This document shows positions 17,707 to 39,842 of a stretch of 64,000 nt of DNA, one piece after another (positions within the stretch are counted from its first letter, which is position 1; every line of letters starts with the position of its first letter). Under the pieces are notes generated by a model. The model had not been told where the DNA came from. It searched no databases and worked only from the letters and a program-made list of their open reading frames with translations. The stretch lies in assembly GCA_964543705.1 (NCBI GenBank), contig CAZIZP010000018.1:12107-76106 (forward strand). Reading direction: 5' to 3'. The translations under genes and the position numbers were made by a program. The stretch is from an uncultured Chitinophagaceae bacterium. GTDB lineage: Bacteria; Bacteroidota; Bacteroidia; Chitinophagales; CAIOSU01.

Positions 17707-17780
17707 GGTTCGGTAGTTCAGTTGGTTAGAATGCCTGCCTGTCACGCAGGAGGTCGCGGGTTCGAGCCCCGTCCGAACCG
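17707..17780 (+). tRNA. tRNA-Asp(GTC)
   Basis: GGTTCGG/CCGAACC acceptor stem, AGTTGGTTAGA D-loop, CT-GTC-AC anticodon loop, GGTTCGAG T-loop, G73; CCA not encoded. Confidence 0.97.
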
Positions 17781-17788
17781 CTCGGAAT

Positions 17789-37336: not shown

Positions 37337-39472
37337 ATGAGTATTAATTTAGGAATAAAAAAGTCGTTCGACTTAGGTGACGGTCGTATGGTTGAAATTG
37401 AAACCGGAAAACTTGCAAAACAGGCTGATGGTTCGGTTGTTTTAAAAGTGGGTAACACAATGTTATTAGCTACAGCTGTTTCGGCAAAAGACGCAAAAGA
37501 TGGCGTGGATTTTATGCCACTTACGGTTGAGTACCAAGAGAAATATGCTTCATCCGGAAAATTTCCGGGTGGTTTCTTTAAAAGAGAAGCCCGTCCTTCA
37601 GAATATGAGATTTTAATCTCTCGTTTAATTGATAGAGCATTAAGACCTTTATTTCCAGATGATTATCATGCCGATACTCAAGTAATAGTTACACTTATTT
37701 CAGCAGAAAAAAACATAATGCCCGATGCTTATGCTTGTTTAGCAGCCTCGGCAGCATTAGCAGTTTCTGATATTCCTTTTAACGGGCCGGTTTCTGAGGT
37801 TAGGGTAGGACGTGTTGATGGTAAGTTTAAAATAAACCCTACCATTTCAGAAATGGAGCAATCTGATATAGATATGATCGTTGCTGGCTCTATAGAAAAC
37901 ATTGTAATGGTAGAAGGGGAAATGAAAGAAGTATCTGAAGAAGATATGGTAGAAGCCATTAAATATGCACATGAAGCCATTAGGGTTCAGTGTAATTTTC
38001 AATTAGAACTAGCTGAAGCCGTTGGAAAAAAAGATGTTTTCAGAGAATACAGCCACGAGAATAATGATGAAGAATTAAGAGCAAGAGTGAATGCTGAAAC
38101 TTCTCAAAAATTTTTTGAGGTTGCAGCTAAAGGCATTGCATCAAAATCTCAACGTAAAGAATTATTTGCCAAAGTAGAAGAAGAGTTTTTAGCATCATTA
38201 ACAGAAGAAGAATTAGCAGAAAAAGGTGGTTTGGCCAAAAAATATTTACACGATGCCCAAAACCAAGCCTGCAGAAATGCAATTTTAGAAACCGGAGTAA
38301 GATTAGACGGTAGAAAAACAAAAGATATTAGACCCATTTGGTGCGAGGTTAACTATTTACCTTCAGCCCACGGTTCGGCAATTTTTACACGTGGAGAAAC
38401 ACAATCGCTTACTACTGTTACCTTAGGAACCAAGTTAGATGAGCAATTAATTGATGGGGTAATTTTCGAGGGCACTAACAAGTTTATGTTACACTATAAT
38501 TTTCCGCCATTTTCAACAGGAGAGGCTAAGCCTTTAAGAGGAACGGGCAGAAGAGAAGTAGGACATGGTAATCTTGCGCTGAGAGCACTTAAAAATATGA
38601 TTCCAGAAACCCCCTATACTATTAGAGTAGTTTCTGATATTTTAGAATCAAACGGCTCTTCATCTATGGCAACTGTTTGTGCCGGAACTTTAGCTTTAAT
38701 GGATGCAGGTGTTCAAATTAAAAAGCCTGTTTCAGGTATTGCAATGGGGTTGATTACTGATGAAAAAAGTGGAAAATATGCTGTGTTATCTGATATTTTA
38801 GGCGATGAAGACCACTTAGGCGATATGGATTTTAAAGTGTGCGGTACTGATAAAGGTGTCACTGCCACACAAATGGATTTAAAAATTAACGGGCTTTCAT
38901 TCGAAACACTTACTGAAGCATTGCATCAGGCAAAAGAAGGCCGCTTACATATTTTAAGTAAGCTTACTGAGACTATTGCACAGCCTAATCCTGATTATAA
39001 ACCACATGCGCCAAGAATTATCTCTTTCAAAATTGATAAAGAATTTATTGGTGCTGTAATTGGTCCGGGCGGAAAAGTTATTCAGGAAATTCAAAGAGAA
39101 ACGGGTACTGTTATAACCATTGAAGAAGAAGGGAATTATGGTAATGTTTCGGTTTCTGCAGATAACAAACCTTCAATTGATAAAGCAGTTTCTTGGATTA
39201 AAGGTATAGTTGCACAGCCTGAAGTTGGCGAAACTTATGAAGGAAAAGTAAAGAGCATTCAGCCTTTTGGCGCTTTTGTAGAATTTATGCCAGGCAAACA
39301 AGGTTTGTTGCACATTTCTGAAGTTTCTTGGAGTCGTTTGGAAAATTTGGATGGAGTGTTAAGCGAAAATGATACCGTTAAAGTTAAGCTACTTGAAATT
39401 GACAAGAAAACAGGTAAGTTTCGCTTGTCAAGAAAAGTATTAATGCCAAAACCAGAAAAACCACAGGCATAA
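37337..39472 (+). CDS. pnp: Polyribonucleotide nucleotidyltransferase
   Basis: [36 protein letters not shown] and S1 domains. Confidence 0.98.
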
Positions 39473-39530: not shown

Positions 39531-39542
39531 TCATAAAAATCC

Positions 39543-39576
39543 GAAAGCCCCTAGTTGCAAGCAATGTCGGGGCTTT
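39543..39576 (-). terminator. Hairpin downstream of the tRNA-like RNA
   Basis: GAAAGCCCC...GGGGCTTTC. Confidence 0.55.
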
Positions 39577-39603
39577 CTTCACAATCAACCAACTTCTTCG
39601 TTG

Positions 39604-39716
39604 CTGTTGGGGAAGGGTTCGAACCTTCACGAGGCGGTTAGACCATATTTGGCTTTGTCCCAAGCTCCTCACCCTCGAGACCGGAGGGCATGTCTGCCTG
39701 TTTCATCACCCAACAG
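39604..39716 (-). ncRNA. tRNA-like RNA: GUC anticodon on a Leu/Ser-type body with a 43-nt variable arm
   Basis: Acceptor (C)TGTTGGG/CCCAACA(G); D arm ATG-AAACAGGCAGA-CAT; anticodon arm CCCTC-CGGTCTC-GAGGG; 43-nt variable region; T arm GAAGG-TTCGAAC-CCTTC. Confidence 0.8.
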
Positions 39717-39737
39717 TATGTTTAACTATTGATACGA

Positions 39738-39745
39738 CAAAGGTA
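39738..39745 (-). promoter_or_regulatory. -7 promoter element for the tRNA-like RNA
   Basis: TACCTTTG on the minus strand about 22 nt upstream of the acceptor stem. Confidence 0.6.
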
Positions 39746-39842
39746 AAAATAGGATGCATTTTTTGCAAATAATTTATTGATTATACTTAAAAAATACAGT
39801 ATTTATAATTTATCTTTGTTTTTTTTAAAAACTATTTAAAAA

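Follow-up and report, generated by a model that had tools for sequence, protein, structure and literature searches.

Asparaginyl-tRNA synthetase (AsnRS), glutaminyl-tRNA synthetase (GlnRS), and the amidotransferase GatCAB are encoded together in 67 genera, Bacteroidetes among them, and this retention of GatCAB has been called possibly vestigial (PMC4206432). Amidation of Asp-tRNA-Asn by GatCAB is conferred by a U1-A72 base pair and blocked by G1-C72 (PMC9976931, PMC4206432), and the extra D-loop base U20a of tRNA-Asp is an antideterminant that prevents amidation (PMC9976931). Aspartate identity depends on five strong determinants, G73, G34, U35, C36, and C38 (PMC9976931). The present analysis concerns a tRNA-like RNA encoded on the minus strand of a 64,000-nucleotide stretch of DNA from an uncultured Chitinophagaceae bacterium (assembly GCA_964543705.1, contig CAZIZP010000018.1, positions 12,107 to 76,106; hereafter, the window), in the interval 39543-39745 between pnp and a gene of the Lrp/AsnC family. 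With its GUC anticodon and its U1-A72 pair, this RNA combines the aspartate anticodon with the acceptor signal of the amidotransferase. It is an undescribed variant of a tRNA-derived RNA, no description of which was found in the literature, and its distribution makes it likely that it is functionally tied, in some way, to the GatCAB/asparagine pathway.

Conserved cloverleaf of a tRNA-derived RNA

A BLAST search of 60 related genomes yielded homologues in 27 of them, from several families, and 29 copies were aligned. The cloverleaf was modelled with stems of 7 bp (acceptor), 3 bp (D), 5 bp (anticodon), 4 bp (base of the variable arm), and 5 bp (T). All 24 modelled pairs formed in every homologue (100% of 696 cells), and in 11 of them both sides had changed. 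The observed values were not reached in any of 500 column shuffles, and pairing fell to 50-59% in every slid register. These results confirmed, far beyond chance, the full 112-nt cloverleaf, located on the minus strand, that an earlier note had read from the sequence of the window. Folding of single sequences was not better than that of shuffles (minimum free energy z = -0.76 and -1.24), and the fold is therefore established by the comparative data only.

Features that define a tRNA were present in the RNA, including the 7-bp acceptor stem, U8, A14, G18 G19, and an invariant GGTTCGA. The first pair of the D stem covaried as A-U, U-A, or G-C, and the base stem of the variable arm, GAGG/CCTC in the window, covaried as GGGG/CCCC, GAAG/CUUC, and GGAG/CUCC. 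The folding of the variable arm proposed in the earlier note thus stood for this base stem and failed for its second helix, TTGGGAC/GTCTAA, the two outer pairs of which held in only 13 and 10 of the 29 sequences; only the G-C and G.U next to CUAAC were compatible with pairing. An attempt to score the apical variable-arm helix with regular expressions gave unreliable results, and the claim is limited to the base stem. An eighth acceptor pair, also suggested in the earlier note, was discarded, as the discriminator G73, which is invariant, faces C, U, or A on the 5' side.

Standard annotation tools did not recognize the RNA. ARAGORN made no call at the locus, Rfam gave no match at its gathering thresholds and no tRNA match even at E <= 10, and the curated families of Rfam 15 gave, on the strand of the RNA, chance-level matches with bit scores far below gathering. 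A short-arm relative in another family of the same class (G209; L192:1337-1415, 79 nt) shares its acceptor stem (UGUGGGG/CUCUACA, G73, C74) and its D arm with the RNA, and has a variable region of 4 nt and the anticodon loop C-U-A-U-C-U-C. This relative was called a tRNA by Rfam (40.8 bits) and a tRNA-Asp(atc) by ARAGORN, which indicated that the window RNA is missed because of its inserted variable arm and that the family is a tRNA derivative. The genome of this relative is GlnRS-negative, GatB-positive, and AsnA-positive, and has no asnC adjacent to the RNA gene.

The covariance model of the RNA (R1) was run on 301 genomes of the phylum. Family members scored above 90 bits over 112-215 nt, with copies at 90-135 bits in dozens of genera, and matches at 50-68 bits and 85-89 nt were ordinary tRNA-Leu or tRNA-Ser genes. 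This mapping across Bacteroidota, which the earlier note had outlined, placed the family in Chitinophagales, Cytophagales, and neighbouring lineages. Members identified in a pattern scan of named genomes included Chitinophaga pinensis, Hanamia, Ferruginibacter, Sediminibacterium, Terrimonas, and Saprospiraceae among Chitinophagales, and Dyadobacter, Spirosoma, Cyclobacterium, Algoriphagus, Belliella, and Flectobacillus among Cytophagales; a few metagenome-assembled genomes labelled Flavobacteriales also carried the RNA. Two tandem copies were present at 20 of 97 loci and three at a further 3.

Consensus counts were taken from 123 model-aligned copies. All five determinants for aspartyl-tRNA synthetase (AspRS) were present in the window RNA and near-invariant in the family. 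Its anticodon loop, Y-U-G-U-C-U-C, occurred as CUGUCUC in 56 copies, as UUGUCUC in 46, and in other forms in 21; G34 was found in approximately 118 copies, and U35, C36, U37, and C38 were near-invariant. At the acceptor end, G73 was conserved in 121 copies, C74 in 122, and U1-A72, G2-C71, and U3-A70 each in 117. The earlier note had singled out GUC and G73 as aspartate identity elements, and C38 and G2-C71 were found to be conserved alongside them. Position 33 was U in 102 copies and G, C, or A in approximately 17%, the window included; the G33 that had been remarked upon is therefore present in the window, as a minority state of the family and a peculiarity of its own lineage. U37, reported with it, proved to be a family character, with U or C in 120 copies. 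Position 20a was A, not U. Only UUC and AUC were seen as anticodon variants, so that all anticodons of the family belong to the acidic NUC boxes. Both tandem copies of one genome (G190; L056:1279-1391 and 1501-1612) have the loop CUUUCUC and thus the anticodon UUC, of the Glu box, with an unchanged acceptor stem, and one copy in another genome (G268) has the anticodon AUC.

The body of the RNA resembles that of a tRNA-Leu. Its D arm and the junctions that flank its variable arm reproduce those of the tRNA-Leu genes in the same genome, a comparison that bore out the 3-bp D stem described as Leu/Ser-style in the earlier note. The D arm carries A14, A15, G18 G19 (within GGCAGA of the window D loop), and A21, and A15 can pair with an invariant U48. 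Across the family, the variable arm measures 36-138 nt; the base stem, which covaries, GGAYAAA on the 5' side, and CUAAC on the 3' side are constant. In most members, this arm also contains a hairpin presenting a GGUYGACCA loop (for example, L065:3195-3215). The genus of the window has lost this hairpin, which is absent from 39631-39670, and the window arm has a short apical hairpin. The motif, GGUYGACCA(C), is near-invariant and single-stranded, it is partly palindromic (GGUCGACC), and its closing stem covaries as CAG/CUG, CUGG/CCAG, and CGG/CCG; it could be a kissing-loop or a protein-binding site. A relation to Y RNA and Rsr, raised by a UUGACC-like motif, was set aside, as no Rfam Y RNA or YrlA model matched (no search for TROVE was made) and the motif is absent from the window RNA.

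Co-occurrence with GatB and an AsnC-like regulator

AsnRS was detected in all 61 relatives of the window genome. GlnRS was detected in 31 of these 61, and only four of the order and class genomes in the high-quality sample lacked it. The distribution of GatB was patchy. In the presence of GlnRS, GatCAB is not needed for formation of Gln-tRNA nor, where tested, for that of Asn-tRNA. Within the order and class, 96 genomes with GlnRS served for comparison of the RNA with GatB. The RNA was present in 44 of the 48 genomes with GatB and in none of the 48 without it, so that the two agreed in 92 of 96 genomes (p = 8e-23 in a Fisher test that ignores phylogeny). Two genomes (G101 and G117), each with a truncated or divergent copy, were counted as RNA-positive.

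RNA and GatB were lost together on at least seven occasions, nested within families and genera. One genome without either (G046) has a congener with both (G021), as does a second (G308, with congener G194); further co-losses were found in G005 (family f1), G093 and G138 (f26), G186 and G260 (f25), and G075 (f28). A GatB match was present in 57 of 59 strongly RNA-positive genomes. RNA-positive genomes G007 and G016, which lacked GatB, also lacked GlnRS, a combination that would be impossible in a complete genome and is therefore ascribed to assembly gaps. In the window genome (G000), GatB is encoded at C2:230313-231161 and GlnRS is absent. This bacterium thus depends on GatCAB for synthesis of Gln-tRNA, and GatCAB is available to act on the RNA.

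Presence of GatB was not sufficient for presence of the RNA, as many GlnRS-negative genomes had GatB without it. GatB without the RNA was common only where GlnRS was missing, a situation in which GatCAB has its ordinary job. AsnA was found in 13 of approximately 354 genomes and never together with the RNA. G046 and G186, both among the 13, are RNA-negative, GatB-negative members of clades that otherwise have both. A strict need for an alternative route to asparagine, driven by absence of AsnB, was discarded, as AsnB homologues were almost universal; the only genomes without a strong AsnB match (G019, G057, and G058) were all RNA-positive, which constitutes weak evidence.

The gene divergent from the RNA in the window encodes a protein whose best match in the Protein Data Bank was Escherichia coli AsnC (2cg4, 1e-34; Lrp, 1e-13). 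Its score against the NCBIfam AsnC model (NF008384) was 171.2 bits, below the cut-off of 227, with 58.5 bits for Lrp, and judged from its sequence the protein is best described as AsnC-like, orthology with AsnC being unproven. It was the sole Lrp/AsnC-family gene found by tblastn (E < 1e-3) in the 3.7-Mb genome. The earlier note had considered both neighbours of the RNA suggestive, and the two fared differently. Linkage to pnp was seen in the window genome only, not even within its genus, and was dismissed. The AsnC-like gene was a conserved partner, adjacent and divergent at 59 of 85 loci with enough flanking sequence, where 122-253 nt separate its start codon and the 5' end of the RNA. An orthologue occurred in all 31 RNA-positive relatives and in 4 of the 30 RNA-negative ones (Fisher p = 2e-13, ignoring phylogeny).

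In families f4 and f25, the RNA and the AsnC-like gene were unlinked and both were retained. Regulator genes that did not have the RNA next to them were flanked by genes for amino-acid transporters, an M20 peptidase, and others, and a search with the filter off detected no hidden RNA beside the regulator in RNA-negative or non-adjacent genomes. Two genomes of another class (G179, locus L036, and G325, locus L060), out of approximately 60 in family f50, had the RNA with an adjacent AsnC-like gene, whose product was 57-66% identical to that of the window. This occurrence suggests that RNA and regulator were transferred horizontally as a unit. In Cyclobacteriaceae (L085 Algoriphagus, L090 Lunatibacter, L094 Cyclobacterium), the RNA genes were not next to asnC and lay directly downstream, on the same strand, of a gene for an RluD-type pseudouridine synthase (S4 and PseudoU_synth_2 domains); in two Cyclobacterium species, the divergent neighbour encoded an AraC-family regulator. 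Neither of these genes was retained as an informative neighbour, as both were conserved only within Cyclobacteriaceae, where asnC is non-adjacent.

Expression, locus layout, and proposed role

Expression was read from transcriptome contigs of a cultured organism near-identical to Chitinophaga pinensis YS-16 (L065). Contig depth is a crude measure from which exact ends and CCA cannot be read. In run X25, summed word depth was 40,000-228,000 over the RNA and 150-650 over flanking genes; in run X26, these values were approximately 410 and 35-65, respectively. Depth fell from approximately 67,000 to 183 within the 3' strand of the acceptor stem, which indicated that the abundant species contains neither trailer nor terminator. 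A leader of approximately 100 nt was covered at a depth of approximately 5,000, as compared to approximately 100,000 for the body. These data point to a stable, end-trimmed, tRNA-like product in this Chitinophaga-like relative. Metagenome runs labelled 'RNA-Seq' that contained the window locus yielded contigs of at least 60 kb, were DNA-like, and were uninformative on transcription.

Failure of tRNA finders and Rfam to detect the RNA, together with its unremarkable single-sequence folding energy, would fit a decaying tRNA pseudogene or an integration scar. Complete pairing of the stems with compensatory changes across several families, high model scores in dozens of genera, high expression and trimming in the relative, and tight co-occurrence with other genes leave such an origin a negligible probability, and covariation and expression data effectively refute it. 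The earlier note's view of an independently transcribed tRNA mimic thus prevailed over a decaying gene.

Coordinates of the locus are listed in Table 1. The promoter and downstream hairpin that the earlier note had attributed to the RNA were both located. Transcription would start from a Bacteroidota-type promoter formed by the TTTG element and TACCTTTG, the spacing of which agrees with that of Bacteroidota promoters, a prediction in line with the presence of a TTG(C)..TAnnTTTG arrangement upstream of homologues; a sigma-70 promoter scan gave no match in the region of the -7 box, as expected for Bacteroidota. Almost all genuine tRNA genes of the window genome end in N73-C74 followed by a non-CCA sequence, and the RNA gene has the same layout, which suggests ordinary tRNA 3' maturation and subsequent CCA addition. 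Most of the 32 tRNA genes called by ARAGORN in this genome lack an encoded CCA, a full CCA being present only in Lys-ttt, Arg-ccg, and Phe-gaa. Within the trailer of the window RNA, positions 39581-39597 hold GUUGGUUGAUUG, which is able to pair with the leader. In genus g8 (L005 and L007-L010), the region immediately upstream of the RNA contains the complementary CAAUCAACCAAU in 2-4 tandem repeats. The GUUGGUUGAUUG/CAAUCAACCAAU elements could be a precursor-processing helix or regulator-binding repeats.

Table 1. Positions, within the window, of the tRNA-like RNA, its parts, and the genes compared with it.
Feature	Position	Strand	Remarks
pnp	37337-39472	+	Gene flanking the interval of the tRNA-like RNA
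-33 TTTG element, Bacteroidota-type promoter	39766..39769	-	Sequence reading; 20 nt upstream of the TAnnTTTG box
-7 box TACCTTTG (TAnnTTTG type)	39738..39745	-	Sequence reading; ends 22 nt upstream of U1
5' leader, ~17 nt	39716..39732	-	Presumably removed by RNase P
tRNA-shaped RNA, U1 (39715) to discriminator G73 (39604), 112 nt	39604..39715	-	Covariance model R1, 127 bits
Acceptor stem, 7 bp	39709-39715, opposite 39605-39611	-	
D arm, 3-bp stem AUG/CAU, loop AAACAGGCAGA	39690..39706	-	tRNA-Leu-like architecture
Anticodon arm CCCUC / CGGUCUC / GAGGG, 5-bp stem; GUC at 39681-39679	39672..39688	-	
Expanded variable arm, 40 nt including the base stem	39631..39670	-	Base stem GAGG/CCUC, covarying; conserved GGGAYAAA and CUAAC
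T arm GAAGG-UUCGAAC-CCUUC	39612..39628	-	Canonical T loop
C74 after the discriminator, CCA not encoded	39603..39603	-	C in 122 of 123 copies
3' trailer (25 nt), terminator hairpin (39543-39577), and U run (39535-39540)	39535..39602	-	Hairpin folded computationally
Divergent AsnC-like regulator gene, 159 aa	39843..40322	+	Pfam HTH_AsnC-type and AsnC_trans_reg domains
Canonical tRNA-Asp(GUC), comparison gene outside the element	17707..17781	+	ARAGORN and Rfam

Elongator tRNAs carry a purine at position 37. The window RNA, with G33 and U37, does not have the decoding-type anticodon loop of U33 followed by a purine at position 37. The canonical tRNA-Asp of the window, to which the earlier note had pointed and which both ARAGORN and Rfam call, has G1-C72, U33, A37, and a T stem predicted to bind elongation factor Tu (EF-Tu) strongly. 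EF-Tu affinities were predicted with the additive T-stem model in Table 2 of PMC3239215. For the window RNA (pairs 49-65 G-C, 50-64 A-U, and 51-63 A-U), and likewise for the family median, a value of -9.4 kcal/mol was obtained, and for the commonest form in the family, -8.0 kcal/mol. Corresponding values for tRNA-Asp and tRNA-Asn, as well as tRNA-Gln, of the same genome were -11.2, -9.7, and -9.0 kcal/mol, respectively. Predicted EF-Tu binding by the T stem of the RNA is thus weaker, by 1.8-3.2 kcal/mol, than that by the T stem of tRNA-Asp, and in this model the RNA falls among the tRNAs of the amidation pathway, which bind weakly, and apart from tRNA-Asp.

U37, the oversized variable arm, and the weak EF-Tu T stem argue against decoding, and the RNA is, as read from its sequence and as the earlier note had proposed, probably not used for this purpose. 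An additional AsnC-regulated tRNA-Asp isoacceptor, which, if amidated, would cause conditional mistranslation of Asp codons as Asn, is accordingly very improbable. Such a role would suit the complete core of the L shape, the canonical T loop, the U33 of most members, and the calling of the short-arm relative as tRNA-Asp(AUC) by Rfam and ARAGORN. It fits poorly with U37 where elongators have a purine, with the non-U33 of the window and other members, with a variable arm of up to 138 nt, with the presence of a normal tRNA-Asp gene, and with a T stem among the weakest EF-Tu binders, whereas a real tRNA-Asp needs the strongest.

A mechanism can be proposed that would join what was directly observed, namely that the RNA has the modelled fold, that its identity nucleotides are conserved, that it is abundant and trimmed at its ends in a relative, and that it is linked to AsnC and GatB. 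The AsnC-like regulator would control transcription from the shared intergenic region, as AsnC does for asnA in E. coli. The transcript would be trimmed like a tRNA and receive CCA. Ordinary AspRS would then charge it with aspartate by way of G34-U35-C36, C38, and G73, and GatCAB would recognize U1-A72 and amidate the bound aspartate to asparagine. The resulting Asn-RNA, which would otherwise lead to insertion of asparagine at Asp codons, would be kept from translation by U37, the large variable arm, and the weak EF-Tu T stem, and would release asparagine or pass it on to some acceptor. We infer all biochemical steps, from charging and amidation to exclusion of the RNA from ribosomes and what becomes of the product. 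We consider the chances about evenly balanced that the RNA is a dedicated carrier for conversion of aspartate to asparagine, charged by AspRS, amidated by GatCAB, and controlled by AsnC. The earlier note's non-translational tRNA mimic agrees with this reading, and the roles that it proposed for the mimic did not include the GatCAB/asparagine pathway favoured here.

The same linkage to GatB and AsnC, and the same conserved nucleotides for recognition by AspRS and GatCAB, could also belong to a regulatory mimic, decoy, or sensor. This RNA would bind AspRS, GatCAB, or a transamidosome-like complex and would act as a scaffold, titrator, or reporter of Asp, Asn, or Gln, rather than as a substrate that is turned over. 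Very high abundance suits a titrating RNA, the conserved GGUYGACCA loop of most members looks like a binding site, and with AsnB almost everywhere, a regulatory role avoids the problem of redundancy. However, the genus of the window keeps the RNA without this hairpin, the invariant G73-C74, the U1-A72 pair, and the tRNA-type 3' gene layout suggest a functional acceptor end, and the presence of AsnA in two lineages without RNA and GatB looks like replacement of an enzymatic function. On balance, a role of this kind is unlikely.

Donation of aspartate or asparagine to a non-ribosomal transferase that acts on a lipid, cell-wall component, protein, or metabolite is quite unlikely. The weak EF-Tu T stem, U37, and large arm suggest escape from translation, the acceptor end is conserved, and the RNA is abundant; a precedent is a non-proteinogenic tRNA-Gly of Staphylococcus aureus that feeds peptidoglycan synthesis (PMC7826273). 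However, no transferase gene was conserved next to the RNA (a genome-wide search for co-occurring transferases was not made), and its neighbours other than asnC vary (AraC regulator, pseudouridine synthase, transporters, and pnp).

Several observations weigh against a GatCAB-dependent carrier for asparagine synthesis. Both Fisher tests, for GatB and for the regulator, disregard shared ancestry. GatB does not need the RNA, as it was present in 21-22 RNA-negative relatives that lack GlnRS, and outside the class, many genomes positive for both GlnRS and GatB had no RNA, in a comparison that did not include AsnRS. AsnB-type asparagine synthase homologues were found in 59 of 61 relatives, so that a second route to asparagine is not obviously needed. 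AspRS should read the UUC anticodon of both G190 copies poorly. The RNA lacks the G1-C72 and G10 of bacterial tRNA-Asp, the family having U-A at 1-72 and A, U, or G at position 10, with G2-C71 kept. Its large D loop of the tRNA-Leu type, with 20a and 20b, is unlike that of tRNA-Asn and may hinder GatB. Moreover, AspRS approaches a tRNA from the side of the variable loop, where a large arm could clash.

Linkage of the RNA to GatB offers, in this class, a testable candidate answer to the puzzle of GatCAB retention described in PMC4206432. The RNA belongs to a widespread family, highly abundant in the one relative examined, that has no Rfam entry and is skipped by tRNA finders; its covariance model would improve genome annotation in Chitinophagales and Cytophagales. 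A broader proposal, which we make tentatively and with somewhat less than even confidence, is that asparagine, or a donor of Asn, is formed in many Bacteroidota on a dedicated RNA that descends from tRNA-Leu and does not decode, with housekeeping AspRS loading aspartate through GUC, GatCAB amidating it through U1-A72, and an AsnC homologue regulating the RNA gene instead of asnA. If true, this would be the first case of an amino acid being synthesized in a tRNA-dependent manner without coupling to translation, and it would explain retention of GatCAB in bacteria with both AsnRS and GlnRS. It would also imply that a tRNA scaffold evolved from decoding to metabolism, with U37, the large arm, and the weak EF-Tu stem as safeguards.

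Comparison with known systems

tRNA-Asn is charged by a non-discriminating form of AspRS (ND-AspRS) in some bacteria, and this tRNA also has U1-A72. The tRNA-Asn of the indirect pathway of ND-AspRS and GatCAB (Thermus, Deinococcus, Bdellovibrio; PMC4206432) shares with the RNA both U1-A72 and G73, and the predicted T stem of the RNA for EF-Tu is weak like that of tRNA-Asn (-9.4 kcal/mol, and -9.7 for the tRNA-Asn of the window genome). The RNA occurs only in genomes with GatB, including those with AsnRS and GlnRS in which GatCAB is otherwise unexplained. In contrast to tRNA-Asn, its anticodon is GUC, not GUU, so that a discriminating AspRS could charge it, and the product would be unusable for Asn codons. 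It further differs in its class II tRNA-Leu-like body, its U37, and its arm of 36-138 nt, and in being missed by tRNA finders.

With bacterial class II tRNA-Leu, the RNA shares the 3-bp D stem, the GAAYNGGYAGAC-type D loop, A15-U48, and the single unpaired base before and two unpaired bases after the stem of the variable arm. Unlike tRNA-Leu, it has G73 instead of A73, the Leu determinant, U1-A72 instead of G1-C72, and the anticodon GUC, and its variable arm is 2-6 times longer and has conserved motifs of its own. The tRNA-like domain of tmRNA and the Y RNA YrlA are, like the RNA, stable, non-decoding copies of the tRNA L shape. They have no genuine anticodon arm, or their ends lie elsewhere, and their Rfam models do not match the present locus, at which the cloverleaf is complete and the acceptor end is of the tRNA type.

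The non-proteinogenic tRNA-Gly of Staphylococcus (PMC7826273), a donor for peptidoglycan bridges, resembles the RNA in being tRNA-derived, in keeping recognition by its synthetase, and in sequence changes that weaken binding of EF-Tu. It differs in its normal size, in being called as tRNA genes, and in having a known acceptor system, the Fem transferases; the RNA is linked to GatCAB and AsnC, with no adjacent transferase. The divergent asnC-asnA pair of E. coli is matched by a regulator whose best match is E. coli AsnC and which is likewise divergent from, and at a short distance to, its partner. AsnA was absent wherever the RNA was present. In the Bacteroidota loci, the partner of the regulator is the RNA instead of asparagine synthetase A, and the regulator itself reaches 171 bits against a cut-off of 227.

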